NCBI GenBank assembly: GCA_029856145.1
Contig: JAHQWK010000001.1
Location: forward strand, 128,001 to 192,000
Reading direction: 5' to 3'
DNA from: Promethearchaeia archaeon
Lineage (GTDB): Archaea > Asgardarchaeota > Lokiarchaeia > Sigyniarchaeales > SOKP01
DNA: 64,000 bases
A model generated the notes under the pieces. That model ran no database searches and was not told the origin of the DNA. It worked only from the letters and a program-made list of their open reading frames with translations. Both the position numbers and the translations under genes were made by a program. The first letter of the stretch is position 1. Each line of letters opens with the position of its first letter. Below are positions 14,421-49,068 of the stretch, piece by piece.

Positions 14421-16328
14421 TTAAGAAAGATCAAACGCGAATATTGTAACTCCTCCCTCTATTCTTTTCAGGTTTAGCAAATATCCTGAACTATTAATAA
14501 TATGAAGCATTGGTTTATTTTCAAGTAGAATTGATCCAGTAAATGTTCGGTAATTAAGCTCTTTGCCAATTTGTACTAAATAATTCAATAAAAACTTAGT
14601 AATCCCTAGTCCTCTCCAATCCTTATGAACTACAAATGCTATCTCTGCAACAGAAGGTTGAACTGTTTTGAAAAATGCTCCTAATGCAATAATTTTTTCT
14701 TCTCCATTTTCACCATATTCTCCTCCCAAAATCATATCTGTTGAGTAATCAATATTAACCATTGGTTGGATTTTTTTATGGCGAAAATCTTTAACAGGAG
14801 CAAAAAATCTCAAATATCTATCTTGCTCATCCAGGGAATAATGAAGTTCTTGAATCATTCTTTCATCTGTGGGTTTTACAGGGCGAATTTTTATCTTTTT
14901 TCCATTTTGAAGCTTTATTATTAATTCATACTTTTCTGGATAAACACTTATTCTTCCATCTATAGATATTGGCAACTTTTGATCTGAATATATATACTTC
15001 CATTTTTTTGCATGTTCTAATAATTCTTCTCGAAAATCTGGATGTGCAATATTAATCATTTCAAGAACTCTTTCTCTAATACTTTTTCCATAAAGATAAG
15101 CAATACCCCATTCAGTCACCACGTAATGGATATCTCCTCTTGTAATTACAACACCAGAACCGGGCTGAAGATAAGGAACTATTCGAGAAACTATGGTTCC
15201 ATCTTTTAGAGTTGCCGTAGAAGGCAAGGTCATAATTGGCTTTCCATTAATTGCTCTTCCAGCACCTCTTACAAAATCAACTTGACCGCCAATTCCGCTG
15301 TAAAATCGGTGACCTAAGGAATCTGAATTTACTTGTCCTGTTAAATCGACACTTAGAGCTGCATTTATAGCTACTTGTTTTTTATTTTTACTAATAATAT
15401 AGGGATCATTAGTATAATCACAAGGATGGAATTCCACCATAGGATTATCATCAACAAAATCATATAATCTTTTTGACCCCATTACAAAGGAACAAATGAT
15501 CTTATCTTTATGTAAAGTCTTTTTTTTACATGTTATTACGCCTTCTTCCACAAGATCAACTATCCCATCCGAAAATACCTCACTATGAACACCTAAATCT
15601 TTTTTCTCCTTTAATTCTTTAGTAACTGCATTTGGAATCTGACCAATTCCCATTTGAATAGTAGATTCATCTTCAATTAAAGAAGCTACAAATTTAGCTA
15701 TTCTAGTGGAAACATCATCGAGCTCACCATAAGTGAATTCAATAATATCGTGATCACTAAGTACATATGCATCAATATCATTCATATGAATGAATGAATC
15801 ACCTAAAGTACGTGGCATTTTAGGGTTTATCTCAGCTACAACTTGGTCGGCAGATTCAGCTATGGGTTTTACAATATCCACATTGATTCCATAACTACAA
15901 AAACCGTATCTGTCTGGTGGACTCACTTGAATTAAGGCTGTATCCATGTGAATTTTTCCAGAGTTGAATAGTTTAGGAATTTCTGAAAGAGGCATTGGAG
16001 TATAATCTGCTTGACCAACTTCCACATATTTTCGCAGTGATTTTCCAATAAAAAATGCATTATGTCTAAATAAATCTTCTATTCCTCCAGCTGTTTCATA
16101 ATAATCTAAATCGCTGAGACTAAGAAAATGCAATATCTCAACATCTGGAAGTTGACGTCCCATTTCAATTAATTTTTTTGTAAGATCAATTGGTTCTGAA
16201 CAACCAGAATCAATAAAAATTCGATTTCCTGGTTTGATATATTTCCTAATCGCTGTGTCTAATGGCACTTGTTTCTTACTATGATTATTTAATGTTTTTA
16301 AGAGATCTTTATTTGAGATTGGCACCAA
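14421..16328 (-). CDS. Acetyl-CoA hydrolase/transferase fused to a C-terminal GNAT domain
   Basis: SYGINVD, QMGIG, HSE, SGIGGQVDFVRGA, VVTEWG; then YLRFF and AEIAFVV..WRGLG (GNAT). Confidence 0.9.
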   Translation of the reverse strand: MVPISNKDLLKTLNNHSKKQVPLDTAIRKYIKPGNRIFIDSGCSEPIDLTKKLIEMGRQLPDVEILHFLSLSDLDYYETAGGIEDLFRHNAFFIGKSLRKYVEVGQADYTPMPLSEIPKLFNSGKIHMDTALIQVSPPDRYGFCSYGINVDIVKPIAESADQVVAEINPKMPRTLGDSFIHMNDIDAYVLSDHDIIEFTYGELDDVSTRIAKFVASLIEDESTIQMGIGQIPNAVTKELKEKKDLGVHSEVFSDGIVDLVEEGVITCKKKTLHKDKIICSFVMGSKRLYDFVDDNPMVEFHPCDYTNDPYIISKNKKQVAINAALSVDLTGQVNSDSLGHRFYSGIGGQVDFVRGAGRAINGKPIMTLPSTATLKDGTIVSRIVPYLQPGSGVVITRGDIHYVVTEWGIAYLYGKSIRERVLEMINIAHPDFREELLEHAKKWKYIYSDQKLPISIDGRISVYPEKYELIIKLQNGKKIKIRPVKPTDERMIQELHYSLDEQDRYLRFFAPVKDFRHKKIQPMVNIDYSTDMILGGEYGENGEEKIIALGAFFKTVQPSVAEIAFVVHKDWRGLGITKFLLNYLVQIGKELNYRTFTGSILLENKPMLHIINSSGYLLNLKRIEGGVTIFAFDLS

Positions 16329-19536: not shown

Positions 19537-19668
19537 CTATGATTTTTCTTCTTTTTCCATCATTTTAATAATTTCTTCTGGAAGTTCTCCTTTATTTTTC
19601 ATACGGTTTAACATATCTTTTACTTCAGAGATGGTGTTTCCATAAATATGTAAAGAATTGCTAAAATC
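19537..19668 (-). pseudogene. thyA: Displaced 3' fragment of thymidylate synthase (second copy of the thyA end)
   Basis: Translates DFSNSLHIYGNTISEVKDMLNRMKNKGELPEEIIKMMEKEEKS*; 35/40 aa identical to the C-terminus of 22641-23645. Confidence 0.92.
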
Positions 19669-19681
19669 TTTTAAAGTTTCT

Positions 19682-19800
19682 TCATTTTGTGTTAAGAGAT
19701 TTTTCTATATCTTCCCAGAGCCCTGATAAATAAATTGAACCAAGAGTAAGATCATATAACCCGTATCCAGGGTGTCTTTTTTCCCCCAAATCATTCTTCC
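19682..19800 (-). pseudogene. uxuA: Frameshifted C-terminal remnant of mannonate dehydratase
   Basis: GRMIWG in one frame joins [28 protein letters not shown] in another, matching the UxuA C-terminal [22 protein letters not shown] motif. Confidence 0.75.
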
Positions 19801-19832
19801 CGGATTAAATTTATATTTTAAACAATCTTTAT

Positions 19833-21134
19833 TTAAATATTTCCTTGTTTGATTATATTTGATATATTTAATGAATCTAAATCCTTTTCTACTCTTATAT
19901 AGCGTTTTTCAATTTGATTTTTTTTGACATATTTGTCTATTATCTTTAGAACCATTTCTCTATCAATATTTCTGTTTACTGCTTTTTCTACTGGAACTAG
20001 CTTTTTAAGTAGAATTGATAGACTAATTTCTTTAAATTTTGCAATATTGTTGATGATATTCTTTTCTATGACATTAGGAATATTGATATTTTCAAATGAC
20101 TTGCAATCAATTTTACATATGAATATTATTTTTTCATCTTCAGACAAATTTTTAATAAAATTTGTAGTTATCTGTGGTGGTTTACTTCCATCTTCATAAC
20201 CAAGGAATTTTTTCATAATCAAATAATCAAAAACTTCATTAATTCCTTCACCAGTTAGAGCAGATGTTTCAAAATAAGCATAATTGTAATTTTTTGCTAA
20301 TTCTAAGGCTTGTTTCTTAATATCCTCTCTATTTTTAACAATATCAATTTTATTCCCTATAATTATAAACGGAATCTCCTTACTAGCAACAAATTGTTGA
20401 GCTTCTTTAATCCAATCCTTAAGTTTTATAAGGGTTTCAAATTTAGAATAGTCGAATAGAATAAGAATTGCATGAGAATATTTATAATAATATCTCCGCA
20501 CTTTTCCAAAGCTTTTTAAGCCTGATAAATCAAATAGATTTAATTTTAGGTTAATATCATTAGTTATCTGTAATTCCTTCTCTATTATTGAAACTCCAAT
20601 TGTAGGGTTATATTTTTCTATAAACACATCCCTTTTATACATTCCCATCAATGCAGTTTTGCCAACAGCTTCAGATCCTATAACAATGATGTTTCTACAA
20701 TTTGTGGTTAAGGCTAAATCATCATTTTGATTTAATTTTGGAGTGATCGAACAAGGATCAAAATTATTCAATATCAGTGATGCTTGATTAGCTATGATAT
20801 GAGAATAAGGTAAGAATTTGTCTAAATGAGAATAAGGACTTCCAATTAAAACAAAAATAGCGTTGGAACTTTTCCCTAATTCTATATAATACAAATGAAA
20901 ATCATCCATAACAAAAGAACCACTACCTAATTCTGTGTTTGTATATATTTTAATTCTATTTAGCGTTTGATCTAGAAGTGTCATTATACCTCCAATTAAA
21001 TCTTCATTGAATTCTTTTACTGACTTTTTTGCTACAATAAAACCATTAAAATCTACAATTAAAGCCGCTGATATATCTGGAACTTCAGTAAGCAAATGGG
21101 CTAGTAAATCCTCTATTATTGGTAATTTGTTCAT
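19833..21134 (-). CDS. Roadblock/LC7 domain + Rab-like small GTPase + C-terminal shared domain
   Basis: ALIVDFNGFIV (roadblock); GSEAVGKT, YNPTIG, DLSG, GNKID and ETSA G-motifs. Confidence 0.9.
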   Translation of the reverse strand: MNKLPIIEDLLAHLLTEVPDISAALIVDFNGFIVAKKSVKEFNEDLIGGIMTLLDQTLNRIKIYTNTELGSGSFVMDDFHLYYIELGKSSNAIFVLIGSPYSHLDKFLPYSHIIANQASLILNNFDPCSITPKLNQNDDLALTTNCRNIIVIGSEAVGKTALMGMYKRDVFIEKYNPTIGVSIIEKELQITNDINLKLNLFDLSGLKSFGKVRRYYYKYSHAILILFDYSKFETLIKLKDWIKEAQQFVASKEIPFIIIGNKIDIVKNREDIKKQALELAKNYNYAYFETSALTGEGINEVFDYLIMKKFLGYEDGSKPPQITTNFIKNLSEDEKIIFICKIDCKSFENINIPNVIEKNIINNIAKFKEISLSILLKKLVPVEKAVNRNIDREMVLKIIDKYVKKNQIEKRYIRVEKDLDSLNISNIIKQGNI

Positions 21135-21341
21135 TTCTTTGATAATTCATTAACACTAATATTCTTAAGAATTAACTCATCCGATTATGATTAATGTTTA
21201 GGAAGAGTTTTTTATATTTAAAAAAATTTACACCTATTTGATAATTTTATTCATTAATATGTGTTTTTAATCTATTTTTTACCTCTGCTTAACCAAAATT
21301 TAACGATTTTTTAGTTTTATAAACATTAAAAAAAAAAAATA

Positions 21342-21812
21342 TTAAATAGTAAAATCCATTTCAATATGACATATTTCAGCAGCTTGAAGTCTATTCTTAG
21401 TAATGTGAGGATCTATGCCCCTAGCATAAGATATCGCTCCTGTTAAAATACCTCCCACTGGACATGCGGTATTTCCTTCGAGATCATAACCTCCTATTCT
21501 TTTTGGACAAATTAAGCATTTTTGAACTACTAATCTAACCTTTTCTTCATCAACATCCACATCTAATTCTTCAGCAAGGTTAATGACACCCATTAGTGCG
21601 TTTATTAATTTTTCATCACTATCACTTACTTTAATAAGCTTTTTGTCTAACATTTCTTTCATTATTTCTCGACCAATCCAGATGCTCAATGCGTCCATTG
21701 CATCTTGTGTAGAAACACTGAATTCTTTGTTTAGGATGAAATCTCTTGTTTTAATTAATCCATATCCTAACCCAATAATTATTTTATTTAGGTAGGTTGG
21801 ATCTGTAGTTAT
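21342..21812 (-). CDS. V4R/MetOD1-like ligand-binding domain protein (likely ATA start at 21812; tracked ATG at 21698)
   Basis: VVQKCLICP...ACPVGGILTGAI...ICHIEM cysteine pattern; frame open 38 codons upstream, filling the gap to the preceding gene. Confidence 0.65.
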   Translation of the reverse strand: MTTDPTYLNKIIIGLGYGLIKTRDFILNKEFSVSTQDAMDALSIWIGREIMKEMLDKKLIKVSDSDEKLINALMGVINLAEELDVDVDEEKVRLVVQKCLICPKRIGGYDLEGNTACPVGGILTGAISYARGIDPHITKNRLQAAEICHIEMDFTI

Positions 21813-21825
21813 TATATCTCTTTTT

Positions 21826-22422
21826 TTAAATATTGGTATCTTTTACCCCCTCTTTAGGTAACTCTAAATCTTTAAATTCTATAAAATCTTTCTGAAATTT
21901 TACAATTTGCTTTTTTATAATTCCTTTTTTAATATACTTTTCAGTAACTTTAAGAATTGCATCTTGATCTATTTTTCTATTAATTGCTTTTTCGATATTG
22001 GAAAGCTCCTTAATCAATATAGCAATACTAATCTCTTTGTATTTTGCTATAATCATGATTATTTGTTTCTCAAGAATATTGGGTATATTTTGCTTTTTTA
22101 AAGAATCACAGTTATAATCGCAGGTTAGAATTATTTTTTCTTCAGAAGACATATTAGAGATAAAATCAGAAGTCATAAGCTTTGCCTTAATGTGATTATT
22201 CTCTACTTGGATATTTTTCTTCTCTAAAATGTTAAAAACAGGTTGAACCCCACGGACTTTAAAGTGGGCATCAACATAAGCAATTAATGTCTTTTTACAG
22301 TGTTCTATGACAAAGGGAATGGGATAACTATTAGAACGAGAAACTAGTTCCTTATTAATGTCAAAAATTATAATCTTTTTACAATGCGGACAATTAGCCA
22401 TTATACTAATAGTTTCAGCCAA
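21826..22422 (-). CDS. Zn-finger protein with a C-terminal domain shared with the GTPase at 19833-21134
   Basis: CPHC...EHC, YVDAHFKVRGVQ; C-terminal EEKII..C...C....NIPN..EK.I...IAK.KEIS. Confidence 0.75.
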   Translation of the reverse strand: MAETISIMANCPHCKKIIIFDINKELVSRSNSYPIPFVIEHCKKTLIAYVDAHFKVRGVQPVFNILEKKNIQVENNHIKAKLMTSDFISNMSSEEKIILTCDYNCDSLKKQNIPNILEKQIIMIIAKYKEISIAILIKELSNIEKAINRKIDQDAILKVTEKYIKKGIIKKQIVKFQKDFIEFKDLELPKEGVKDTNI

Positions 22423-22640: not shown

Positions 22641-23645
22641 TTATTCATTTTCCATTAATTTAATAACCTCTTCTGGTAGTTCTCCTTTATTTTTCATGCG
22701 AGATATCATATCTTTTACTTCAGAAATAGTATTTCCATAAATATGTAGAGAATTGCTAAAGTCTAGATAATGACCTATATCAACTCCTAATTGATCAGCA
22801 ACAAATTTTTGAATTCTAATCATTCCATTTACATTAGCTTCCCAAGCTCTAAATAAGTCTCTACTTCTCCAAGTTGTTTGCATTATCAATTTTCCTTCTT
22901 TTATACGCATATAAATTCTTTGTAAACAAGGAGGATCAATGTGAAAAGGATCAACTAACGGTCTCCATGTTATCGCTTGTGCTCTACGGCTATATGGTTT
23001 TTCTTTTAATTTTTGTATAATATAATTGATTTGATTAATTCTCGGAAATTCGAATAGAGCGATTGGAATTTCTTCAATTCCAATTTGTTCTGAAATTTTT
23101 TTATCTAAATCAAATTCAACACCATTTTTCAATTTCCAGATATTAGATTCAGGTGTACTTTTTACCTTGTCAGCTTTTATTAACTTTTGATGTCCTTTCA
23201 CAAACTCATTATTGATAATTTTGAGATCATAATTTTTATGAATCGTATCTTCAAGAGAGAAGGGAGCGTAATTGTAAATTCTATCATGATAAGAGTATGG
23301 AAAACTCACATCAGACTCACTTAATAAATTGTCATTTATCCCATCCATGATTTCTTCAATATATCCACTCTGAATAGAACCGATTAAATATATATCTGCT
23401 AAACAACCATAAACTTCATAAGAATTACCGAATTTCGATCTAATTTTCATGATCTTATCTTTACGCATAATAGGACTACTAAATGGTTCTGTAATCTCTA
23501 TTAAAACCGTAGCGTCTTTTGAAGGTGGGTCTTCCGGCTTATCATATTCAGTTTTAATATCATCACCAAAAAATAATACCTGTCCAACAACAGAAAGCCA
23601 TGCATCTCTAATACTATTTTTAGAAATAAAAAACACTTTAGCCAT
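22641..23645 (-). CDS. thyA: Archaeal-type thymidylate synthase with an internal insertion
   Basis: YSYHDRI, QINYII, SRRAQAITW, DPPCLQ (catalytic Cys), RSRD, AN, SLHIY. Confidence 0.88.
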   Translation of the reverse strand: MAKVFFISKNSIRDAWLSVVGQVLFFGDDIKTEYDKPEDPPSKDATVLIEITEPFSSPIMRKDKIMKIRSKFGNSYEVYGCLADIYLIGSIQSGYIEEIMDGINDNLLSESDVSFPYSYHDRIYNYAPFSLEDTIHKNYDLKIINNEFVKGHQKLIKADKVKSTPESNIWKLKNGVEFDLDKKISEQIGIEEIPIALFEFPRINQINYIIQKLKEKPYSRRAQAITWRPLVDPFHIDPPCLQRIYMRIKEGKLIMQTTWRSRDLFRAWEANVNGMIRIQKFVADQLGVDIGHYLDFSNSLHIYGNTISEVKDMISRMKNKGELPEEVIKLMENE

Positions 23646-34918: not shown

Positions 34919-37900
34919 CTATTTAATCTTTATAATTTTTGGTTTAAATATGGAAGAAATTTCTTTTTTTCCTACTCTTGCTATCCCGATTAGTTTTTCT
35001 GCAAGCAAGAATAATGAATTTGAAGATTTTGGTAAGAACATAAATAACTGAATCGGATTTTGCTCTAATGTTGATTTAATTAATTGATATACTACTTCTG
35101 AATTCTTTTCATCTAAAAACATCCCGGGTTCATCAAGCATAGAAAGTGCAGAAGGCTTAATTTCTTGCAAAGATAAGATCAAGCATATTGAAATAAGAGA
35201 AACCTGCCCTCCGCTTAACGCAGTAAAAGATTTTAATTGCTCTTTTGAGGTCGCTGCTTTAATATCAACGCCTAAGTTTTCAAAATCTCCTATTAATCCA
35301 AGATAACAATAAGATTTAATCTGAGAATCTTCAAATTTTTGATTAACCCTCTTTTGGAGATTATCTAGCAAGACACTAAATTTTTGATAATATGTTTTTT
35401 CCATTTTATTTTCTGTTTTCATTGCTGCTTTAACATCTTTCTCCAAGTTATTTTGATTTTTTGAGATTTCCTTAAGAGATGTTAATATCTGGTCTTTCTC
35501 AATCAGAATAGAATCTTCAACATCTAAATATTTGAGTAATTCTTTATCAATTTTAGAAATATCGGTTTTAATTTCCTCTATAGAACGAATTTTAATTATT
35601 TTTTCTGAGATTAAAGGACCTATTTCTGAATTAATTCTAGCTAAATCACTCTTTTTTGATTCAAGATCTTGATTATAAGAGGTTAACTTGATATTTTCTT
35701 GCTCATAGTTTAAGGTTATTTGAATATTCTTCTTCTCTAAATCACTCTTTTTGTTTTTTAATAATATTATTTCTCCTTTTAAATCAGCAATTTCATCTTC
35801 AGTTATTTTAATTTCCTCTTCCACATTTTCTAACTGACGATATATATTAAATGCCGTTTTATCTGCTTTCTGAAAAGCTTCTTTTTTTGTTTCATGCTCT
35901 TTTTGTATTGAATTCTTTTCAAATGTATGTTTATTTAATTTATCTTTTACTTCTTTTAGAATTTCTAAATTTTCACTTAATTTTAAATCCCATTTTTTCT
36001 TATCTTCATTGAGGAAAGTCAATTCATTAGGTATTTCTTTAATCCTGTCATTCCACTTGAAAAATTCTGGATCTGTTTGAGATTTTAACTCTTTAATTTG
36101 ATAATCATGTTCTTTAATTTCACTTTTAAGGTCTAAATTGATATTTTCTAATTCATGCATTTGATTGTATAACTGATTCTTTTTTGATGTAATTCTTTGT
36201 TTTTGGTTAAAATTGTAGAGGAGATCATTGAAAGACTCTTTTTTTTTAAATGTATCTTTTTGTATTGTATCTAATTTGGCTTGTTCAACTCTTAATTCTG
36301 AAATGGTATCATTTAAAGACTTTATTTCAGCTTCTAATACCTTGGATTGCTCTTTTTGAGTACCAGCACTTAATAATCCTTTTAATCTTTTTAAATACGG
36401 TGTTTCAAAGACATATTTATAAGAAATTATTTGTTCTCCCTTTAATGTTACACATTTTCCTTTGAAATTGAGTGTTTGATAGATTTGTCTCCCTGAGTGG
36501 TAATCACTTACAACAAGGCAATTTTTTATTTTTGAATAAATAACTTTTTTAATATCAATATCATCATCAATGATTTTAATTAATTCAGCTAAATAACCAA
36601 CCACATCAGTAGCAGAAATTTTCATAAGGGGTGTAATACTTATATTTTTAGGAAGATAAATATTACAGTATGCACCATATTTATCTTTTAGTCTCTTTAA
36701 CAAGTTTAAGGTATCCCAATCGTTAGCTACAAAACTATAGAGCAATCTTTCACCTAAAACTGATTCTATAGCATAGCTTAACTCATCATTATATTTTAAA
36801 TAATCAATAATAGGCCCCTTTACTTTTAATCCTCTTTTTTTTATCTCATCTTTAAGAATAGTTATACTTGAAGGGAGAATTACTCGTCGTTCTCTAAGCG
36901 AAGCCTGTAATATCTTTAATTTCTTTAATTTTTTAGATTTTGTGAAATCTAACTGCTTTATTTCGGATTCAATTTCAAATAATCTTAATGATGCTCTTTT
37001 CAGTTCTCTATCAAATTGAGTTATTAGATTTTTGGAGGGATTTTCTAAAAACCATTTATTTTTTTCTAATTTGTGCTCGATATCTTTAAAACTTTGAAAA
37101 AGCTGATTAATCTCATCATTAAAAACCTTTATTGATTTCTCATTCTCTTGGATTTTTGATAATCTTTCTTTTTTCTCAAGATTTATTTGATTGAATTTAT
37201 CAAGAAGTTCCCTATTTTGCTTTATTTTTTTTATTAATTGGTCCTGTTCAGTTATTAATTTATCAATATGTAATTCTGCATTTTTAGTTTCCTTTTTTAT
37301 TGCTTTTAATTCGTTTTCCATACTACTTTTCTGTTTCTCGAAATTATCAATTAATCTATTGAATTCCTTAATCTTTGCTGATAGCTCGTCTAACTCTTGT
37401 TTTGCTAATATTTTGTCTTTTTGCCAATTTTGAATTTTTGCAGCTAAATCTTTCTTTTTATAACTTAGCGCCCCAACTTCTTTTGAAAGTTTATTAATGT
37501 TTAATTCCTTATCTGAAATTTTATTTATTAATGCGTTTATTTCCTTATCGGAAATTTCCTTTTTCTTCTTAATTCCATCTAATACAGATTTAACATTTTT
37601 AATTATCTCTTCAATATTTATAATTTCTTTCTCTAAGCGATCTCTATTGGCCCATAAGAGCTCATCAGTAAATTTCGTTTTAATATCTAACAATTTATGC
37701 TTTTTTTCTAGGCGCTCCAATTTAGGATTTAATAGCTCCAAGCTAATATTTAATGTGTTTTTTCTACTTTTTAATGATTGAAGGTTATTGTTTAAATTTA
37801 GTACATTAGTTTTTTGTTGTAAAATTTCATCTCTCAACTCTTTTAATCCAATACCTTCCTCAAGAAAAGTACATAATTCTGTTGGTTTTAAATTTTTAAT

Positions 37901-38380
37901 AGCATCAATTTTCCCCTGGCTAACAATCGCAAACTGATTATCTGGATTGATATTTAAATCAGAAATTAATTTCTGAATATCTTGAGCTGATATTTTTTTG
38001 AAGTCATTATCACTCTTTCTTTGAATATTGAAATATGGAGATTGCCCCCTAATAACATATCTTCTTATTTTTATAATTTCTTCCACATTTTGAATATGAA
38101 CCTCAACCATTGCATGATTTTGTCTATTTCTAATGAAATTAGACCATTTTTTATATCGTTCATCTCTTTCATTACTCCCTAGAGCAAACTTAATTGCTTG
38201 AAATACAGAAGTTTTCCCACTCCAATTTGGGCCTACAATAATCACGAATTTTGATTTACCGAAATCAACTTCATCCTTCTGGAAAGATAAAAAATTTTCT
38301 AAAATTACTTTTCTAATGAAAATTCTTTTATTTTCCATTGAATTGATTTCATTTTTATTTGTTCGTGATCTAGAAGCCAA
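34919..38380 (-). CDS. smc: SMC ATPase, Smc5/6-related archaeal type
   Basis: Walker A GPNWSGKT, Q-loop VSQG, coiled coils, central hinge VKGPIIDYL...AIESVLG, signature LSGGQ, Walker B MLDEP. Confidence 0.93.
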   Translation of the reverse strand: MASRSRTNKNEINSMENKRIFIRKVILENFLSFQKDEVDFGKSKFVIIVGPNWSGKTSVFQAIKFALGSNERDERYKKWSNFIRNRQNHAMVEVHIQNVEEIIKIRRYVIRGQSPYFNIQRKSDNDFKKISAQDIQKLISDLNINPDNQFAIVSQGKIDAIKNLKPTELCTFLEEGIGLKELRDEILQQKTNVLNLNNNLQSLKSRKNTLNISLELLNPKLERLEKKHKLLDIKTKFTDELLWANRDRLEKEIINIEEIIKNVKSVLDGIKKKKEISDKEINALINKISDKELNINKLSKEVGALSYKKKDLAAKIQNWQKDKILAKQELDELSAKIKEFNRLIDNFEKQKSSMENELKAIKKETKNAELHIDKLITEQDQLIKKIKQNRELLDKFNQINLEKKERLSKIQENEKSIKVFNDEINQLFQSFKDIEHKLEKNKWFLENPSKNLITQFDRELKRASLRLFEIESEIKQLDFTKSKKLKKLKILQASLRERRVILPSSITILKDEIKKRGLKVKGPIIDYLKYNDELSYAIESVLGERLLYSFVANDWDTLNLLKRLKDKYGAYCNIYLPKNISITPLMKISATDVVGYLAELIKIIDDDIDIKKVIYSKIKNCLVVSDYHSGRQIYQTLNFKGKCVTLKGEQIISYKYVFETPYLKRLKGLLSAGTQKEQSKVLEAEIKSLNDTISELRVEQAKLDTIQKDTFKKKESFNDLLYNFNQKQRITSKKNQLYNQMHELENINLDLKSEIKEHDYQIKELKSQTDPEFFKWNDRIKEIPNELTFLNEDKKKWDLKLSENLEILKEVKDKLNKHTFEKNSIQKEHETKKEAFQKADKTAFNIYRQLENVEEEIKITEDEIADLKGEIILLKNKKSDLEKKNIQITLNYEQENIKLTSYNQDLESKKSDLARINSEIGPLISEKIIKIRSIEEIKTDISKIDKELLKYLDVEDSILIEKDQILTSLKEISKNQNNLEKDVKAAMKTENKMEKTYYQKFSVLLDNLQKRVNQKFEDSQIKSYCYLGLIGDFENLGVDIKAATSKEQLKSFTALSGGQVSLISICLILSLQEIKPSALSMLDEPGMFLDEKNSEVVYQLIKSTLEQNPIQLFMFLPKSSNSLFLLAEKLIGIARVGKKEISSIFKPKIIKIK

Positions 38381-38401
38381 ATTACCTCATCCTTTCATTT
38401 A

Positions 38402-39652
38402 TCATTTACCAAACGCTTGTTTTATTAGATCTACCCTCTTTTTAGCCTTCTCTAAGTTTATTTGTGCTTTGTTTGGAGAATCATTTAAAATAAATGGATA
38501 TCTTGCTAACATTTTCATATCATTATCCTCCAACGGCTCTTTTTTATTTAATTTATCAATAATAATTGTAAGTTCTGTATAATTCTTAGAAGCCGCATCT
38601 TCATATAATTGATTTAGCATGAAGTCTGAAATTCGTGATTCTCGAATTCCATTAACAAAATCCCTAATATCTTTGATATCTTCTACTTTTTTAAATATTT
38701 GGGTCGGAATTTTTTCATTATTTTGATGAATCTCTGCCTCTAACTCAATATTTGAGTTTTTTTCTGAATTTTGAGTCATAGAATTAGGAATATATTCACC
38801 CGAAACAATCATATCAATCAAAACATCGGTGATTTCATTGCTCATTTCATTCAATTCTGAATTTAAGAAATGTTTGAATATTCCTACTTTCAACAATTGC
38901 AAAATGTCTTTAACTTCCCAATTTTCTGTATAATTTACGATATCATTAATATCGAAGACTATTTTCGGGTTTTTTTCTAAAAAATCTTTCAATACAGTTT
39001 CTCGCTCTATTCTATTCAATAATGGGACTTTAATAAAAAGATCAAAGGTAGAATATATTTTATTAGACACACTTTTAATGTCTTGAATCTCATAATTTAT
39101 CCAAACTAAAATTAAATTAGAGTCAATAAATTTATAATCAAAACTCTTGTTTTGCCAAGCATTTAGAAAAACTTCTAATAAACTTTTATTTTCAAATTTT
39201 TGTCTGAATACAGGTTGTTGATTAATCAATAATACTTTTTTTTCCTCAACTTTATCAGGATCTCTCGTATCCGTTTCAGTTTTCTCTTCTTTTTTTCCAT
39301 CTTTTCCAAAAGCTTCTAATATTGAAATAAAACTTTTTAAAAATTTATTAGGATTCTTAAGAAGTTCAATATCGTTAAATTCAATTAAATCTAAGTAGTA
39401 ATTTTTAGTAATTAGTTTGATATAATCTAGTATATCCGTTCCGAGATTAAGATTAATTAAAATGGCTCCTTTTGGCTCTATATAACCATTTAAAGTTGGA
39501 TCGTCATGATTAGTTAACATAGCCTTGAGAAAATTAATAATATCATTATATTTATCCCGATAGAAAATATCTTCTTTATTAATATTAATTTCTGAAGGTG
39601 AAATTACCTTAAAATACTTTGAAAATTCCGGAATGTCATTTAATTCTTTCAT
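38402..39652 (-). CDS. Degenerate AAA+ (CDC48/PAN-like) protein lacking Walker motifs
   Basis: PKGAILINLNLGT in place of PKG.LLYGPPGTGKT; FDLFIKVP..NRIER..VLK and TENWEVKDI match the AAA lid region. Confidence 0.6.
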   Translation of the reverse strand: MKELNDIPEFSKYFKVISPSEININKEDIFYRDKYNDIINFLKAMLTNHDDPTLNGYIEPKGAILINLNLGTDILDYIKLITKNYYLDLIEFNDIELLKNPNKFLKSFISILEAFGKDGKKEEKTETDTRDPDKVEEKKVLLINQQPVFRQKFENKSLLEVFLNAWQNKSFDYKFIDSNLILVWINYEIQDIKSVSNKIYSTFDLFIKVPLLNRIERETVLKDFLEKNPKIVFDINDIVNYTENWEVKDILQLLKVGIFKHFLNSELNEMSNEITDVLIDMIVSGEYIPNSMTQNSEKNSNIELEAEIHQNNEKIPTQIFKKVEDIKDIRDFVNGIRESRISDFMLNQLYEDAASKNYTELTIIIDKLNKKEPLEDNDMKMLARYPFILNDSPNKAQINLEKAKKRVDLIKQAFGK

Positions 39653-39886
39653 TTACAATTTTCCTTTAATTCTTCCTTAGTTTTATGAACATAAATTACA
39701 AGACATTTAACAAATATATATTTAGCGGTACTCATAGTTAGCGATAATTAGATCCCCGACAAAAACCGTAAAATTTATAAAATCGTATTTTGGAAGAAGA
39801 ACTTCAAAAATTAATTTGAAGACTAAAAATAACACGCACATTACTTTATTAAAGTAAATAATTAAAAAAAAAAGAGATAGAATTTA

Positions 39887-40135
39887 TTATTTTTGTTCCC
39901 AAGGCATACAGAAAAATCCCTTTTCTAACTCATATTTTGAGAACAATCCACAACCAAAACAACTACACCCTTTATTTTCTATTTGATCTCTGGGTTTAGT
40001 AGATGGTCCTCTTGAACAGAAAAGAGCATGCGGCTCAAATTCATTGAGTTGATTTGGTTTGAATGAGGGGCAAGGTCCGCAAAATTTTCTACATTCGTTC
40101 ATGGATTCCTCAGTATCTGGAACCGGTTTTGGCAT
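39887..40135 (-). CDS. DUF2769-like Cys-rich protein (likely start MPKP)
   Basis: C.FCGPCPSF, LFCSRG, GCSCFGC and FFC pattern. Confidence 0.75.
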   Translation of the reverse strand: MPKPVPDTEESMNECRKFCGPCPSFKPNQLNEFEPHALFCSRGPSTKPRDQIENKGCSCFGCGLFSKYELEKGFFCMPWEQK

Positions 40136-40260
40136 ATTTTTCACTTGTTTTTTTAGATTTTTAAATATTTTTTTCAAAATTTTGAATTACGATCAAAGTA
40201 AGAAAGTTTATTTTTAAATTTAATAATTATAAACTATTAATTTTAGAGAAAAGGATAAGA

Positions 40261-40656
40261 TTAAGCTAATTCTTGATTTAATAAATCTAGATAAGATGAA
40301 ATCTTTTCTTTAACTATGTCATAATGCGTAAACTTACCTTTTTTCCATCCTTTAATTAAACCAGCATTTTCAAGAATTTTTAGATGATGGGATATAGATG
40401 GTTGTGACTCATCTAAAGCCGCTTCTAATTCACATACACATCTATCTTTTTCTTTTAAAACATTTATAATAATCAAACGTTTCTTATTCGCTAAGGCATT
40501 TACAAAGTTATTTAAATTATCAAACCTAAAATTTTGAATTAATTGATCTCCAATCTCTCTTAATTTTTTAAAATGCTGATCTGGGTTTTCCACATCTTCA
40601 CATTTAATCAATTTAGCTTTAATTTCTTCCTCATGGTCAATATCCATTTTAAACAC
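40261..40656 (-). CDS. arsR: ArsR/SmtB metalloregulator
   Basis: CVCEL, SQPSISHHLKILENAGLI; divergent from acr3. Confidence 0.88.
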   Translation of the reverse strand: MFKMDIDHEEEIKAKLIKCEDVENPDQHFKKLREIGDQLIQNFRFDNLNNFVNALANKKRLIIINVLKEKDRCVCELEAALDESQPSISHHLKILENAGLIKGWKKGKFTHYDIVKEKISSYLDLLNQELA

Positions 40657-40813
40657 TTCTTTTAAGGCAAAATTTTAATTATTCAATATTTAAATAGGAT
40701 AAACAACTTTATAATTATTTATCCAAATCAATAAATTTTTATTTGAATAAAAATTTTGTTATTTAAGATTAATACTGCCCTTTATCAAAATAATTAAAAA
40801 AAACTGAAATATC

Positions 40814-41842
40814 ATGAGTGAAGAAGAAGGAGAAGGTAGAACAATTAGCTTTTTCGAGAAATTTCTCCCACTTTGGGTAGGTTTATGTATCCTCATAGGC
40901 ATTATTCTTTCTCAGGTTATTCCTGGTATTAGCCAAGCTATTAATTCTTTCAGTATCGGTCAGATTTCCATACCAATAGGCATTTGTCTCTTCCTAATGA
41001 TGTATCCAGCAATGTTGAATTTACAAGTTTCGGAATTGAAAAAATTAGGGAAAAATCCTAAACCAATAATTTTAACACTTGTATCTAATTGGTTAGTGGC
41101 TCCATTTATAGGTTTACTTATGGCCCGTATATTTTTACAAGGTTATGAACAATTAGTATTCGCTATTATTTTACTAAGTGCAAGTCCATGCACAGCAATG
41201 GTTTTAGTGTGGGGTTGGATGGCAAAAGGTAATCAGGAACAGAATGTAGTAAATACAAGTCTAAATACGATAACTATAATATTTGGTTATGCTCCTATGG
41301 TGGCATTATTAACAGGTATTCAAAATATTCCTGTTGATTGGCTATTATTATTGGTTTCGGTTTTTATCTTCATTGGACTTCCATTACTAATAGGAATAAT
41401 TAGCAAAAGACTTTTAATATCGTCTAAAGGCGTAGATTGGTTTAATAATATTTATCGACCAATAGTTGGAAAGATATCGATTATGGCACTATTAACAACC
41501 CTGGTTTTACTTTTCTCTATGAATGGAAATGTTCTAATTACTAATCCAGGCTATCTTTTATTAATTTCAATTCCACTCTTACTTGGATTCGTAATTGTAG
41601 TTGGATATAATATAATTATAACCAAACTATTCAAATTAAAGTATCGCGAGGCAATTATCACAGTAATCATAGGTTCATCAAGTCATTTTGAAATTGCTAT
41701 TGCTACAGCTATTGCTATGTATGGAATTGGTTCAATCGCAGCATTGGGCACTACAATGGGATTATTCTGGGAGGTTCCAGTGATGTTATTAATTGTATAT
41801 TTAGGTCGATTTTTAAGAAAGAGAGGTTTTTGGAAATCCTAA
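40814..41842 (+). CDS. acr3: ACR3-family arsenite efflux transporter
   Basis: MMYP, NWLVAP, SPCTAMVLVW, SSHFEIAIA. Confidence 0.92.
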   Translation: MSEEEGEGRTISFFEKFLPLWVGLCILIGIILSQVIPGISQAINSFSIGQISIPIGICLFLMMYPAMLNLQVSELKKLGKNPKPIILTLVSNWLVAPFIGLLMARIFLQGYEQLVFAIILLSASPCTAMVLVWGWMAKGNQEQNVVNTSLNTITIIFGYAPMVALLTGIQNIPVDWLLLLVSVFIFIGLPLLIGIISKRLLISSKGVDWFNNIYRPIVGKISIMALLTTLVLLFSMNGNVLITNPGYLLLISIPLLLGFVIVVGYNIIITKLFKLKYREAIITVIIGSSSHFEIAIATAIAMYGIGSIAALGTTMGLFWEVPVMLLIVYLGRFLRKRGFWKS

Positions 41843-41919
41843 TCTTTTTAATTTTGAAATAGATAATTAATTAAAGAATAGAAATCTTGAAAAAATAACA
41901 ACTATTTTACTGAATAGCT

Positions 41920-42099
41920 ATGATTGAAGAAGAAATGGATAAGCAAATTACCAAGATAATAAAAGAAGCTATTGGACAAATTTCTCATTCGAGGTGTAAT
42001 CACTCAGAATCACCCTATAGTAAGGATAGTCCAGATTGGGAGCCCAAGCGTATTCATTGTGGTACTGATAGATGTAAGGGACTTCATCAAAACAATTAA
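41920..42099 (+). CDS. 59-aa Cys/His-containing protein, absent from the ORF track
   Basis: MIEEEMDKQITKIIKEAIGQISHSRCNHSESPYSKDSPDWEPKRIHCGTDRCKGLHQNN*; fills the gap after acr3 and ends 8 nt before the next ORF. Confidence 0.6.
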   Translation: MIEEEMDKQITKIIKEAIGQISHSRCNHSESPYSKDSPDWEPKRIHCGTDRCKGLHQNN

Positions 42100-42107
42100 A
42101 ATATCTC

Positions 42108-42404
42108 TTGGATGTGATAAAGATTAGTGATGAAATAGATTCAGAAAAATTAAAAGTTGACATTTATGTCCCATTAGATGCGTGTGCGTGTGAATGGGAT
42201 AAATTTATGAATCGGGTATTTGTTGAACTAACACCTTTTATAAAACATATTGATTATGATACTAAGAATCTTAATTCAATAGAAGCTAAACAACTCAATC
42301 TACATAATAAATGTATAGTAGTAGATGGAAAGAAAATATTTTCTTCATCTTTTACACTCAAAAAGGAATTACCGAAACTTCTTAAAGCTAAAGGTCTTAT
42401 TTAG
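42108..42404 (+). CDS. Thioredoxin/ArsD-like small protein with CAC motif
   Basis: VDIYVPLDACAC...IVVDGK pattern; arsenic locus context. Confidence 0.6.
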   Translation: MDVIKISDEIDSEKLKVDIYVPLDACACEWDKFMNRVFVELTPFIKHIDYDTKNLNSIEAKQLNLHNKCIVVDGKKIFSSSFTLKKELPKLLKAKGLI

Positions 42405-42436
42405 TCTTTAGAATCTTTTTATAAAATTTAATTAAG

Positions 42437-42793
42437 GTGATTATAAAAATTAAGAAAATTAAGTTAACAATTTTTGCTCCAGATCCTGAAAAGAAGTTAT
42501 CAAATGGGCTTGATTACAATTTAAATATTGTTGAAAAAGGATCTATTATTGATGTCTTAAGCACTTTAGATAAACAAATTTATGATAATCCTGAAAAATC
42601 TATTTTCCCCATATATAAAGGCTTAATTCAAAGTTTTGTTCAGTTAATATGGGATGCTGAAGAGAATGTAATTTATGAGGATTGTGCGTTAAACGCTTAT
42701 GGACCACATAAAGAATTCATGCCTTTACATGATGATATAAATTTTAACTTATATCCTGATAGTGAAATAACGATAGTAGTCCATGCTGATTGA
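42437..42793 (+). CDS. Possible beta-grasp (ubiquitin/MoaD-like) protein without C-terminal GG
   Basis: GSIIDVL..LD...LYPDSEITI pattern; ends VHAD then TGA TGA. Confidence 0.55.
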   Translation: MIIKIKKIKLTIFAPDPEKKLSNGLDYNLNIVEKGSIIDVLSTLDKQIYDNPEKSIFPIYKGLIQSFVQLIWDAEENVIYEDCALNAYGPHKEFMPLHDDINFNLYPDSEITIVVHAD

Positions 42794-43030
42794 TGAGCTG
42801 ATGTTATGAAAGAACGACCAGATTATGGAAAATTCAAAAGAGTTATTATGAAAATCTATGGAAAAAGCGATGAAAGATTTGCCCATTATTTTAAAACTAA
42901 AAGAAATAATTAATAAATTGGATGAGACTTTTCAAAAAATGCTAGTGAAAAGTTAACAATAGGATTGCTTCCTATAAAAATTAAATATATTCGAATTGTA
43001 TAAATAGACTGCCTTATATTTAAACATTAT

Positions 43031-44032
43031 ATGGATATTTTCACACATATGTTTATGGGGTTATTAGCTGGTTTATTTACATTAACCCTTTTAAGTCCAG
43101 AAGCAATTATCCTTTTATGGCTTATGACCTTTTTACCCGATTTTGATGTATTCTTGGAGCCACTCCAAAAAATACGAAAGATGTATTTTTTTTCACATAA
43201 AGCGGGTTCACATTCATATGTAATAGGTTTGTTTTTTACTGGAATTGTGAGTTTTATTATCTCTTTATTTATGGACGTTTCATTCTTAGAAGTTTGGACT
43301 GCTGGTTTCATCGGTTATAGCATCCATGTATCATTAGATTTCTTTGCTGCCTCGAAAATCCCAATTATATATCCGATCTCTAAAAAAGAGTTTCGATTTT
43401 TTGCGGATAGAGCTGTCAATCCACTACTAGCTACTTTTTCTGGTATAAATATTTTAGTTTTAATTGTAAGTTTCTTCATAAAATCCACTTATCAAGTATT
43501 TATGAGTCTTGCTTTTTTTTACTTATATATTTACATAATATATTTTGGAATTAGGGCTTTTTTAAGAATACTTATCCAAGTGAGCTTACCTAACAATCAG
43601 AAATACATTCCAGGCTTTTTTCCATTTTTCTATTTAATATATGAGAAAATAGAATCAAATAATAGCATTATGTTTAAATTAAAAAAATGTAATATATTTT
43701 CCTCAGAAAAACAAGAACTAATAAATCAGAAAATAGAGAAGGGTTCAAATGAAATTATCTTTTATGAATTAGCTAAATCAATTAGCCAAGAATATAGGTT
43801 CTTCCATAAATGGAGCCTAATCATTCCTTTTATTCGTCAGCATGAAGATTCAATTAATGTTGTTTTGATTTTGACTGAGAGTTATGCTCAATCATTACAA
43901 CACAAATCATTTAAAAGGAATATTTCTTCTTATTATCTCTCAATTACCTTTGATAAATATTCAAAACAATTCATTTCGAAAATAGATGGGTTTGGTTCTT
44001 TTAAAAAGTGGGAAAAATTCAAATTAGTATAA
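43031..44032 (+). CDS. Membrane metal-dependent hydrolase (YdjM-like)
   Basis: MD.FTH, LPDFD, HKAGSHS, HVSLD. Confidence 0.85.
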   Translation: MDIFTHMFMGLLAGLFTLTLLSPEAIILLWLMTFLPDFDVFLEPLQKIRKMYFFSHKAGSHSYVIGLFFTGIVSFIISLFMDVSFLEVWTAGFIGYSIHVSLDFFAASKIPIIYPISKKEFRFFADRAVNPLLATFSGINILVLIVSFFIKSTYQVFMSLAFFYLYIYIIYFGIRAFLRILIQVSLPNNQKYIPGFFPFFYLIYEKIESNNSIMFKLKKCNIFSSEKQELINQKIEKGSNEIIFYELAKSISQEYRFFHKWSLIIPFIRQHEDSINVVLILTESYAQSLQHKSFKRNISSYYLSITFDKYSKQFISKIDGFGSFKKWEKFKLV

Positions 44033-44208
44033 AATAAGACATATTAAATAAGGTTTTCAGATGTTTATTAGGCCTAGATTAAAAGAAAATTAAAAAAATT
44101 AAGAACGTTTAAAGATATCAATTTGGTACCAAATATATCTTAGATAAAAATAAATGTAAGTACTATATATAGAAACATAATGATAAAATAAAATTATATT
44201 AAATAAAT

Positions 44209-45423
<1,215 letters not shown>

Positions 45424-45493
45424 CATAAATATTCTTATTTTAGAATTTGAGGAAAAATCTTATTACTTTTTCAACTTTTAAGAAAATCACCTT

Positions 45494-46090
45494 ATGTTGG
45501 ATAATAAAAATCTCTCTTTAATTAGAGATTTCGCCTTTCTTAATTCAGAAAAAGATGATATTCATGGCTTTTCACATGTTAAAAGGGTGTACGATTTATG
45601 TCTCAAATTAGGTAAAAAATTAAATGCAAACTTATCTGTTTTGCAAATTGCTGCTCTGCTTCATGATATTGGAAGAACTCATGAAAAAAATATTACTAAT
45701 AATATAAAAAATCATGCTGAATTATCTGCTGAAATTGCTTCTGAATTTTTACAATCTCAGGCTTTTTCACTTTCTCAAGAAGAACATGAACGTATAATTC
45801 ACTGTATTAGATCACACTCATTCTCAAATAATTCAAATCCTCAGACTCTTGAAGCAAAAATATTATCTGATGCTGATAAATTAGATGCTCTTGGGGCTAT
45901 AGGGTTATACCGAACCATAGGATTTACTATACAAAATCACGGAGGAATTGACCAAGTAATTAATCATTTGGAAAATAAAATAATGAAATTAAAAGATCTA
46001 TTATATCTAGACATCAGTAAAAGAATTGCAGAAGAACGGCAGCAAATTATACTTAATTTTTACAACCAGATTAAAAAACAAAAAATTTAG
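45494..46090 (+). CDS. HD-domain phosphohydrolase
   Basis: HGFSH, LLHDIG, HA..SA, LSDADKLDALGAIG. Confidence 0.9.
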   Translation: MLDNKNLSLIRDFAFLNSEKDDIHGFSHVKRVYDLCLKLGKKLNANLSVLQIAALLHDIGRTHEKNITNNIKNHAELSAEIASEFLQSQAFSLSQEEHERIIHCIRSHSFSNNSNPQTLEAKILSDADKLDALGAIGLYRTIGFTIQNHGGIDQVINHLENKIMKLKDLLYLDISKRIAEERQQIILNFYNQIKKQKI

Positions 46091-46092
46091 AA

Positions 46093-46539
46093 TTATAAAG
46101 TTGAGATAAGTCTATATTGTTCTTCGGAGACTTTTTCTTTAATAACCTCAAAAAGCTCTAAAAGCACATTGTCAGGAGCTGCTGCCATAATATATTTCAA
46201 AGGACCGAATCTTTTTATTTTTTTAATAAATTGAAATCCCTTACTTTCCAAATGTTCCACGAGAGCCTCTAAATCGTCTGTTTCAATCCCTAAATGATGA
46301 ATCGCTCCTCGCCCATGATCCATAGGTGGTTGATCATAGAAATTAATTTTTGATGATCCAATCTGAATCATCACATTTCGCGATCCTGCCATTTCCAAAT
46401 CGAACAGAATTTTTGCTCCAAACATTTCTTCGTAAAATTTAATGCTTTCATCAACATTCGAAGCAAACAGATGAGCATGATGTAGTGAATTTCTCATAAT
46501 TTCTTCACATTTAATTATAAATTCATTTTTATTACTCAA
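46093..46539 (-). CDS. VOC/glyoxalase/bleomycin-resistance family protein
   Basis: LHHAHL, FYEEMFG, IHHLG, PDNVLLEL. Confidence 0.88.
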   Translation of the reverse strand: MSNKNEFIIKCEEIMRNSLHHAHLFASNVDESIKFYEEMFGAKILFDLEMAGSRNVMIQIGSSKINFYDQPPMDHGRGAIHHLGIETDDLEALVEHLESKGFQFIKKIKRFGPLKYIMAAAPDNVLLELFEVIKEKVSEEQYRLISTL

Positions 46540-46550
46540 TAATTAATAAT

Positions 46551-49049
46551 TTAAATTAAATATGATCCCGTTTTTGATGCAATGTTATGCTTAATATCCT
46601 CTGGAGTACCTTTGGCGATTATTTCTCCACCTTTAGGACCACCTTCAGGACCTAATTCGATGATGTAATCTGCGTATGACAAGATTTCGGGATCATGTTC
46701 AATAATAATGACACTATTTCCTTCTTGTACTAATTGGGATAATAACTGCATTAATTTAACTACGTCATAAAACGATAATCCTACAGTGGGTTCATCTAGA
46801 ATATAGAGAGCATTACCTTTTCGAGCTTTTCCTAATTCTTTTGCCAGTTTAATTCGTTGTGCTTCTCCACCGCTTAACGTTGGAGCGGGTTGCCCAAGTG
46901 TAATATAGCTCATTCCAATCTCATCAAGAATTTTAAGTATCTTTGAAATGTTGGTTTGAGATCTGAATAATTCCAATGCTTCACTTACCGTCATGTCCAA
47001 CACCTCAGAAATTGTTTTACCTTTATATTTAATTTCTAAAATTTCTGGTTTATACCTTAAACCTTTACATTCTTTACAAAGGATTGTAAAACTACTAAGA
47101 AATGAAATTTGTAAATCTGTTTCACCAGTACCTTTACAAGAAGGACATCTCCCATTATCAGAATTATAAGAAAAATGTCCAGCTTTATAATTTCTCTTCT
47201 TTGCTTCTGGTGTTTTAGCAAATAAATTCCTAATTTTATCCCAGATTCCTATAAAAGAACATGGAGTAGAAGTTCTCACTCTCGAGATTGGTTTTTGATT
47301 TACCACAATTACTTCATCAATATTCTCCCATCCTTCAATAACACCAGAATATTCTAAAAGTTCATCACCATTTATTTCATTTTCACTATTGTTATCTGTT
47401 TTTTTTTGTGGCAAATCAACTCCTCGCTTGAAATATGGTGTTATCAAAGGAACTAAAGTATCTAATATGAGAGAACTTTTCCCTGATCCAGAAAGGCCAG
47501 CAATCCCAACCATCATTCCCAAAGGAATTTTCACAGTAATATTTTTTAGGTTATTTGTTTTTGCACTTCTAATTGTCAAAAATTTAGTATGTTTATCAAA
47601 ATTTTTACGTTCCTCAATAGATTTCTCTTGTAATTTAATATTTCCCCCTAAAAATTGCCCCGTATAAGAATTTTCTACTTTCTTTATTCCATCTAACATA
47701 CCTTGATATACTATTTCCCCTCCGTTAACTCCTGCTCCAGGACCAATATCAATTATCTCATCAGCAATATCTATGAAACGTTTATCATGTTCAACAATGA
47801 TGACAGTATTTCCTAATTCTTTCAATTGTTTTAATATATTAATTAGGGACTCTTTTTCTTGTTCATGTAAACTCATGCTGGGCTCATCTAATATATAAAT
47901 AAGAGAATCAAGACCAGCATCTAAATGAGTCATGAGAGACAACCGTTGAAGCTCACCACCACTCAGTGTAGGTAAGGAACGATTTAGATGCAAATATGAG
48001 AGACCAACATTGACCATGCGTTTTAAGCCTTCTAATAAACTATCTAACATTGATTTACCTTGTGGACTTTGTATATGTTGTTTACTTAGACCTCCCAAAA
48101 ATTTTACCAATTCATCAATAGTCATCATAGCTAACTTACCAATATGTTTATCTAAGATTTTAATCTCTCTAGCTTGTGTATTTATACGATAACCACCACA
48201 TTCTTCGCATTTTTTATTTGACATGAAATTTTTATGAATCTTTTGTCTTCTATAAGCACTTTTTGATTCTGAGAGAGCACGCTTTACATGTGGAATGATT
48301 CCTTCAAATTCTCTTTCTAAAATTCCAGTAAATGTTTTTGAATCCCACTCAAACGGTAATTTTTTACCACTACCATATAAGAAAACGTGCCTTACTTTTT
48401 CTGGCAAATTCTTATATGATGTTTTAATGTCAAAATCATAAAATCTTGGTAATTGCTCAACAAAACGGATTTGATCAGCAAAAACAGCCGAACCCGCTTT
48501 TGTTATTTGAATTAGGGTTCTGTTATTATCCTGAACGATTAAGGCCTCAGTAATATTCACAGTATAACCCCTTCCTTTACAAGCTAAGCACATGCCTGAG
48601 GGTTCATTAAACGAGAAATGTTTGATTTGCTTTCTGTCTACGACCATTCCACATAAATCGCAATCTAGATTATCATTAACAGGTTCCTTGCAGATAGGAC
48701 ATAGTAAAACACCTTCTGTAGCATAAAGCATTCTGAGTAAACCATAAATTCCTGTCTTAGTACCCACTGTTGAGCGTGGATTGAATACACGTGTGGTTCG
48801 TTGTTCCACTGCTACTGTGGGACTTAGACCTTCAATTAAATCAAAAGGTTTCTCATCTTCAAACTTTGGTGGAAAGCCGATAGATTGAAGATAACGATTC
48901 ATCCCCTCATCAAATATAATATCAAATGCAAGACTTGACTTTCCAGAACCAGATACCCCTGTAATTAGAATTATTTTCCCTTTATGAATATTTACATTAA
49001 TATTTTTTAAATTATGGATTCTTGCACCTATTATTTTTATCTGATTCAT
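46551..49049 (-). CDS. uvrA: UvrA-family ABC ATPase, short class II (UvrA2/DrrC-like)
   Basis: GAR.HNLKN, two GxSGSGKSS, two LSGGE/LDEP sets, Zn fingers; 832 aa with the UvrB-binding insertion apparently missing. Confidence 0.85.
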   Translation of the reverse strand: MNQIKIIGARIHNLKNINVNIHKGKIILITGVSGSGKSSLAFDIIFDEGMNRYLQSIGFPPKFEDEKPFDLIEGLSPTVAVEQRTTRVFNPRSTVGTKTGIYGLLRMLYATEGVLLCPICKEPVNDNLDCDLCGMVVDRKQIKHFSFNEPSGMCLACKGRGYTVNITEALIVQDNNRTLIQITKAGSAVFADQIRFVEQLPRFYDFDIKTSYKNLPEKVRHVFLYGSGKKLPFEWDSKTFTGILEREFEGIIPHVKRALSESKSAYRRQKIHKNFMSNKKCEECGGYRINTQAREIKILDKHIGKLAMMTIDELVKFLGGLSKQHIQSPQGKSMLDSLLEGLKRMVNVGLSYLHLNRSLPTLSGGELQRLSLMTHLDAGLDSLIYILDEPSMSLHEQEKESLINILKQLKELGNTVIIVEHDKRFIDIADEIIDIGPGAGVNGGEIVYQGMLDGIKKVENSYTGQFLGGNIKLQEKSIEERKNFDKHTKFLTIRSAKTNNLKNITVKIPLGMMVGIAGLSGSGKSSLILDTLVPLITPYFKRGVDLPQKKTDNNSENEINGDELLEYSGVIEGWENIDEVIVVNQKPISRVRTSTPCSFIGIWDKIRNLFAKTPEAKKRNYKAGHFSYNSDNGRCPSCKGTGETDLQISFLSSFTILCKECKGLRYKPEILEIKYKGKTISEVLDMTVSEALELFRSQTNISKILKILDEIGMSYITLGQPAPTLSGGEAQRIKLAKELGKARKGNALYILDEPTVGLSFYDVVKLMQLLSQLVQEGNSVIIIEHDPEILSYADYIIELGPEGGPKGGEIIAKGTPEDIKHNIASKTGSYLI

Positions 49050-49068
49050 TTTTTTACCTCTTATTACT

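Follow-up and report, generated by a model that had tools for sequence, protein, structure and literature searches.

A wingless winged-helix domain, its V4R/TRAPPC3-fold gene partner and a roadblock-Rab GTPase fusion in Asgard archaea

Introduction

Asgard genomes carry dozens of small GTPases, and it has been described as difficult to infer their regulators from the layout of the genome (PMC10933270). In the cultured archaeon MK-D1, roadblock-GTPase fusions have been described; Tran et al. 2024 (PMC10933270) state that its GTPase genes in general do not share operons with genes for roadblock, longin or TRAPPC3 proteins. The Thor TRAPPC3 is a four-Cys Zn homodimer with cavities, for which ligand binding was proposed, and each of the folds considered here was already known in Asgards (PMC10933270). 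In bacteria, operons that encode a sensor, a roadblock protein and a GTPase are known (PMC4316618), and in the regulator MsvR the cysteines of a V4R domain control DNA binding (PMC3729527).

Here we analysed a three-gene cassette in a 64,000-nt stretch of a Promethearchaeia genome (the window), which encodes a Zn-ribbon protein with a C-terminal domain termed X, a V4R/TRAPPC3-fold protein, and a roadblock-Rab-like GTPase that also ends in X. With the Asgard TRAPPC3 (PDB 7YH2/7YH3) the V4R protein shares the fold, four cysteines and, probably, a Zn-bound dimer, but it belongs to a different family (14-16% identical to the Asgard TRAPPC3/V4R proteins of PMC10933270), and, in contrast to the picture drawn in that work, the V4R-GTPase link is here a genomic one with a dedicated partner domain. 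The eukaryotic TRAPP core likewise links Bet3-fold proteins to a Rab-like GTPase; however, it has longin subunits, whereas the cassette has none, carries a winged-helix adaptor instead and has one Bet3-fold gene, and its GTPase is fused to a roadblock domain and lacks both the prenylation motif and the catalytic Gln. The conservon CvnABCD and the Myxococcus Frz-MglA/MglB system resemble it in that a sensor, a roadblock protein, a small GTPase and an accessory protein are operon-encoded, the GTPase is the output of a sensory system, and the ancestry is chemosensory. In the cassette, however, the putative sensor is a soluble V4R protein and not a membrane kinase, the GTPase is Rab-like and not MglA, and the roadblock domain is fused. 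Identity with a conservon was discarded, given that DUF742 (PF05331) had no match in the genome at E 1 and that there is no kinase in the cassette. MsvR and the MetOD1 output domain (PMC5847659) also place a Cys-rich V4R fold beside a helix-turn-helix-type domain, but here the genes are separate, the domain is wingless and neutral, no operator is shared and a GTPase is attached. On the features tested, the cassette belongs to none of the TRAPP, Rag, conservon or MsvR systems, and in its working it comes closest to a conservon-type sensor-GTPase unit with TRAPP-related parts. A published description of the module was not found in the literature search, in which few subscription papers were within reach.

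Results

The cassette genes are all on the minus strand. The first one (21826-22422, TTG start) encodes a 198-aa protein with a CPxC...HC Zn-ribbon at about aa 9-70 and a first copy of X (21880-22176), the MK-D1 orthologue of this protein being DSAG12_03939 (WP_147665077.1); the last one (19833-21134) encodes a 433-aa protein with a second copy (19875-20171). Both open reading frames are present, and their C-termini align without gaps, as noticed in the initial annotation (48 of 99 columns identical, 0 gaps; BLASTP E 2e-24; phmmer 8e-27 in a search of the genome's complete ORF set). The same phmmer comparison showed that the genome holds just these two copies. The Cx3C that had also been singled out is shared by the two window proteins; among 30 homologous domains, however, just 8 have it, and it is therefore not a conserved metal site. 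The guess of a winged helix proved correct when structure models were compared: in these models X folds as a winged helix without its wing, because in the Thor, Heimdall and MK-D1 proteins the chain ends 3-6 residues past the last strand. The top fold match was a GATOR1/SEA chain (8FW5 chain C, 8ADL chain S; Z 8.0, rmsd 3.0, 72 residues), with an alignment that includes the strand before the X winged helix, and GATOR1 regulates the roadblock-bearing Rag GTPases. This match, however, has 8% identity and no PDB sequence match, and it is tied with the unrelated winged helices of Fur/PerR and MecI DNA-binding domains (Z 6.7-7.5; PerR 7.5), so that no family can be assigned to X. Foldseek with the Zn-ribbon-X model gave no significant match, and Pfam, NCBIfam and PDB sequence searches named neither X nor the V4R family of the window. 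X is a narrow family (49 representatives in a set of 1.84 billion proteins), and the objection that it could be a promiscuous repeat on genes that do not co-occur was ruled out on both counts, as the genes do co-occur (see below).

The Zn-ribbon of the first protein is found in 12 proteins of this genome, and none of its 11 paralogues has a GTPase gene within 2.5 kb, which leaves a role as general GTPase neighbour unsupported. In the form CPxC...H...D...RG, it is an unnamed, widespread Asgard domain with many fusion partners, and some copies flank che operons.

The middle gene (21342-21839) encodes the V4R protein. The ATG proposed by the ORF finder, at 21698, is internal, and its homologues start about 47 codons further upstream. 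At 21839, 6 nt after the ribosome-site-like motif GAGGGGG, there is an ATA codon from which the gene would have a 14-nt overlap with the upstream stop; since homologues begin at this point, the gene probably starts there, which gives a protein of 165 aa. That a V4R-like Cys protein sits between both X genes, as first annotated, was supported by Foldseek and VIA, the model (pLDDT 71) showing the two-layer helix/sheet V4R-Bet3 fold of the V4R/TRAPPC3 superfamily. Foldseek ranked Thor TRAPPC3 (E 2e-4), TPC6 and Bet3 at the top, and VIA gave tied matches to PoxR (Z 11.9, rmsd 3.9, 148 aligned), DmpR (Z 11.3) and Bet3 (Z 11.1). The four cysteines are kept in all of 17 close and all of 12 broad homologues and represent a candidate Zn cluster. 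Pfam V4R (PF02830) and TRAPP (PF04051) did not match any of 17 family members, and scans of the own genome with these profiles matched other genes or none; the family carries the label PF27343 (MJ0207) in contig records. The MK-D1 orthologue, DSAG12_03938 (WP_147665075.1), is listed as a methanogen output domain protein in UniRef, and it is neither of the two MK-D1 proteins named in Tran et al. 2024 (PMC10933270).

The neighbourhoods of X and of the V4R family were surveyed in 161 genomes of the class and in 400 Asgard genomes. Among the former, X was present in 23 and the V4R family in 16, and in 16 of these 16 the Zn-ribbon-X gene lies directly before the V4R gene, with stop and start often overlapping. 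Among the latter, 39 gave strong matches to the V4R family and 38 of these have an adjacent X gene, the sole exception having a truncated V4R; as the surveyed genomes are kin, these counts overstate independence. The genomes with the pair span the Loki, Thor and Heimdall lineages and include the cultured MK-D1, and the V4R protein is 43-63% identical across the distant X loci. The co-occurrence expected for the window genes thus held for X and V4R. The accompanying reading, that partners are united by sharing X, stood only in altered form: the constant partner of X is the V4R protein, and not the other X-bearing protein. The N-terminal partner of X varies (a Zn-ribbon, none, as in the stand-alone X of about 90 aa at five Heimdall-type loci, or unrelated domains), and the V4R link is kept throughout. 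On the contigs of ten distant X proteins a V4R family gene was adjacent in eight, and the other two contigs ended too soon. In genome G149 two X genes each have a V4R gene behind; one of these (L040, G149:C19) is a second, diverged V4R gene, 54% identical to that of the window, directly after a GTPase-X gene. In G170 a single V4R gene lies between two X genes. X is present without the V4R family in G036, G158, G159, G013 and G015. Taken together, the sequence comparisons identify X plus the V4R family as the conserved unit, to which roadblock-Rab-X was added later and once, in 9 genomes.

Further architectures of X were also observed. The Zn-ribbon...X proteins at L050 and L117 (G013 and G015) are long, at 371-381 aa, contain an unassigned middle region and have no V4R neighbour. 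[quoted passage not shown] As called by eye in P0029 and P0050, X is fused to a CheC-like stretch in one short protein, a possible assembly chimera, and to a DENN-like region in another protein.

The protein encoded at 19833-21134 combines a roadblock-like domain (aa 1-130), a Rab-like GTPase (aa 146-310) and X. The roadblock-like domain, which had no Pfam match, was called from its sequence pattern and its similarity to other roadblock-GTPase fusions. The G domain matched Pfam Ras (E 2e-35), with Rab39B, Rab21 and a Thor Rab as best PDB matches; the genome (3.55 Mb, 30% GC) has about 57 small-GTPase ORFs. The motifs are G1 GSEAVGKT, G3 DLSGL and G4 NKID. Two Rab features are absent, the G3 DxxGQ, whose Gln is missing in all 42 family members, and a C-terminal Cys for prenylation, the C-terminus being X. 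No Gtr1_RagA match was obtained, and the domain order is reversed relative to Rag, in which the roadblock domain is C-terminal and not N-terminal.

A small GTPase is encoded in the co-oriented X-V4R cluster in 23 of the 39 genomes, in four arrangements: the fused GTPase-X is found in 9 Loki genomes, a separate DxGGQ-type GTPase gene precedes Zn-ribbon-X in 11 Thor-family genomes, and other types occur in three more. In the remaining 16, MK-D1 among them, no GTPase was found next to the pair. Zn-ribbon-X is kept in the same cluster in all 9 GTPase-X genomes. In the trees, the X domains of the GTPase-X proteins form one clade (99/97) nested inside the Zn-ribbon-X diversity, and this cross-genome clade rules out a recent tandem duplication or gene conversion in this genome. 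The X-bearing roadblock-Rabs also form one clade (99), inside a family with 33 X-less roadblock-Rabs, whose genes at essentially every locus examined are part of a chemosensory operon (cheW, Y, A, R, B, D, C) or adjoin one. It follows from the trees and this setting that a chemosensory GTPase underwent a single copying event, acquired X and became linked to the V4R pair. Hence, by phylogeny the fusion has a single origin from a Gln-less roadblock-Rab of Lokiarchaeial chemosensory operons. It is intact in the 9 genomes, which belong to two genera, at 46-55% identity and with G1, G2 and G4 kept. A dependence of GTPase-X on chemotaxis was discarded, since a CheW-CheC marker had no match in 6 of the 9 genomes. 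The neighbouring GTPases took separate places in the tree, but one clade was not rejected (p-AU 0.122), so that repeated recruitment is just suggested.

The cassette lies at the 3' end of thyA (thymidylate synthase, 22641-23645, minus strand), a flank outside the module. The three module genes are followed, on the same strand, by a frameshifted 3'-end remnant (19694-19801) of a gene that we take, from its motif, to be uxuA-like (mannonate dehydratase) and that is intact here in relatives, and then by an orphan copy of the thyA 3' end (19546-19669; 124 bp, 86% identical to 22641-22764), a scar of gene gain. In congeners, of which 4 of 53 have the module, the cassette is missing at this site and thyA abuts a TetR gene (G060, G064, G090, G062) or other inserts. 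The other module loci have unrelated flanks and no flanking repeats, and relatives without the module (G085, G089) have similar remnants beside other inserts, which makes it doubtful that the thyA repeat was left by the integration of the module itself. Neither an integrase nor a transposase was seen in the neighbouring ORFs. The cassette is accessory DNA at a gene-gain hot spot at the 3' end of thyA. At this place relatives have uxuA/uxuB-like genes, a methyltransferase-TetR pair or nothing, often with a diverged second thyA 3' end. Elsewhere in the window (14421-16328), an acetyl-CoA hydrolase/transferase-like protein with a C-terminal acetyltransferase-like domain was noted by eye.

Finally, a complex of two V4R copies with Zn-ribbon-X was predicted with a score of 0.60, the best of three controls reaching 0.00. 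This lends weak support to the pairing, and does not imply X as the contact, as the whole Zn-ribbon-X protein was used with no interface read-out. In the benchmark, the mark was reached by 58 of the 80 solved pairs and by 2 of the 110 mismatched ones; of these passes, just seven solved pairs and both mismatches stood at 0.60 or under, and passes around this score are often wrong unless the pairing is likely beforehand. The runs had at least 81% contact agreement and a partner pLDDT of at least 70.

Discussion

From the folds of X and of the V4R protein, their gene linkage and the single origin of the fusion, we infer with modest confidence that X is a docking domain by which its partners attach to a dimer of the V4R protein, and that this dimer acts as a sensor and controls the GTPase. 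The V4R protein would dimerise and bind Zn through its four cysteines, and its cavity, by analogy with V4R relatives, may sense a small ligand or the redox state. If X binds this dimer, any domain fused to X would be tethered to it. The ancestral adaptor would then be Zn-ribbon-X, and the acquisition of X would let the roadblock-Rab dock directly on the V4R hub. Because the G3 glutamine is missing, the nucleotide state of the GTPase may depend on partners: its own roadblock domain, the V4R hub or the adaptor. V4R input would thereby replace the Che input as setter of the switch.

We weighed this docking proposal against other readings of the same genes. The gene order, winged helix then V4R, is that of V4R-containing regulators such as MsvR, and the fold matches tied at the top for X include the DNA-binding domains of Fur/PerR and MecI. 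X might then bind DNA, with V4R as a redox or ligand sensor in trans and GTPase-X as a nucleotide-controlled DNA-binding subunit. We consider such a split regulator unlikely: X has no wing hairpin, its net charge is near zero (-8 to +8 in 62 domains), the conserved positions are mainly core hydrophobics and an EKAL turn, and X and V4R never occur in one chain, being separate genes at all loci examined. Moreover, the best shared palindrome upstream of 22 operons was found in 7 of them, against 5-8 for shuffles, in a simple test that may miss degenerate sites. Thus, of the "signalling or transcription system" first suggested, signalling stands as the best reading and transcription is weakened. 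A fairly improbable alternative takes the V4R dimer as a Bet3-type scaffold which, with the adaptor, forms a constitutive GEF or membrane platform for the GTPase and senses nothing. The Foldseek ranking and the VIA score to Bet3 agree with it, and the longin-like pattern of some distant X proteins recalls the pairing of Bet3 with longins in TRAPP; but this pattern is unconfirmed, the PoxR and DmpR sensor domains score equally high, the cassette has neither a longin gene nor a membrane protein, the GTPase ends without a Cys to which a lipid anchor could be attached, and the parent GTPase belongs to a chemosensory operon.

Winged helices often dimerise, and the 9 fusion genomes all retain Zn-ribbon-X, as would fit a heterodimer of the Zn-ribbon protein with the GTPase through X, V4R binding elsewhere. 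This is quite improbable, given that 29 of the 38 linked loci lack the GTPase-X fusion, that V4R is the constant neighbour of X, and that the V4R gene of G149 was duplicated beside a second X. A function of the X-V4R pair by itself, with the fusion as a passenger of gene shuffling in a variable region, would account for the presence in few congeners, the three gene orders, the unrelated flanks and the gene remnants at the site. The conservation of the fusion and its GTPase motifs across two genera, and the separate GTPases that adjoin the pair in Thor and others, make this highly improbable.

Extended beyond the window, the docking proposal would describe an undescribed Asgard-wide plug-and-socket system, in which a Bet3-fold sensor dimer and a docking domain wire in various small GTPases and regulators; this we put forward tentatively, as a possibility. 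If true, it would amount to a functioning link of precursor type, in a prokaryote, from the Bet3 fold to the control of a Rab-like GTPase, and in the window a chemotaxis-output GTPase would have been re-plumbed to a new sensor, so that the module would record the rewiring of a GTPase between sensory inputs via one domain fusion. The module brings together a specific Bet3-fold protein with a particular partner domain and particular GTPases, all of which are small and soluble, and cultured MK-D1 has the core pair. This makes V4R/Bet3-fold control of a Rab-like GTPase testable in archaea and bears on an origin of TRAPP from a ligand sensor.

As for the output, cytoskeletal or membrane control may be guessed from the gelsolin-like gene in the operon of the parent GTPase; that of this genome's che operon matches Asgard gelsolin with E 9e-4. 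This operon lies on another contig (L172, G000:C3 about 35900-49600), beside EF-2, and consists of cheW, cheY, cheA, a cheW-cheC fusion, the gelsolin-like gene, cheB, cheD, cheC and a second cheB; unlike most relatives, it has no cheR and no roadblock-Rab. A second V4R-GTPase neighbourhood was also observed in this genome (L174, G000:C4:25049-28177), where a V4R gene other than that of the window is flanked by two genes for Rab-like GTPases, together with a thioredoxin-like gene.
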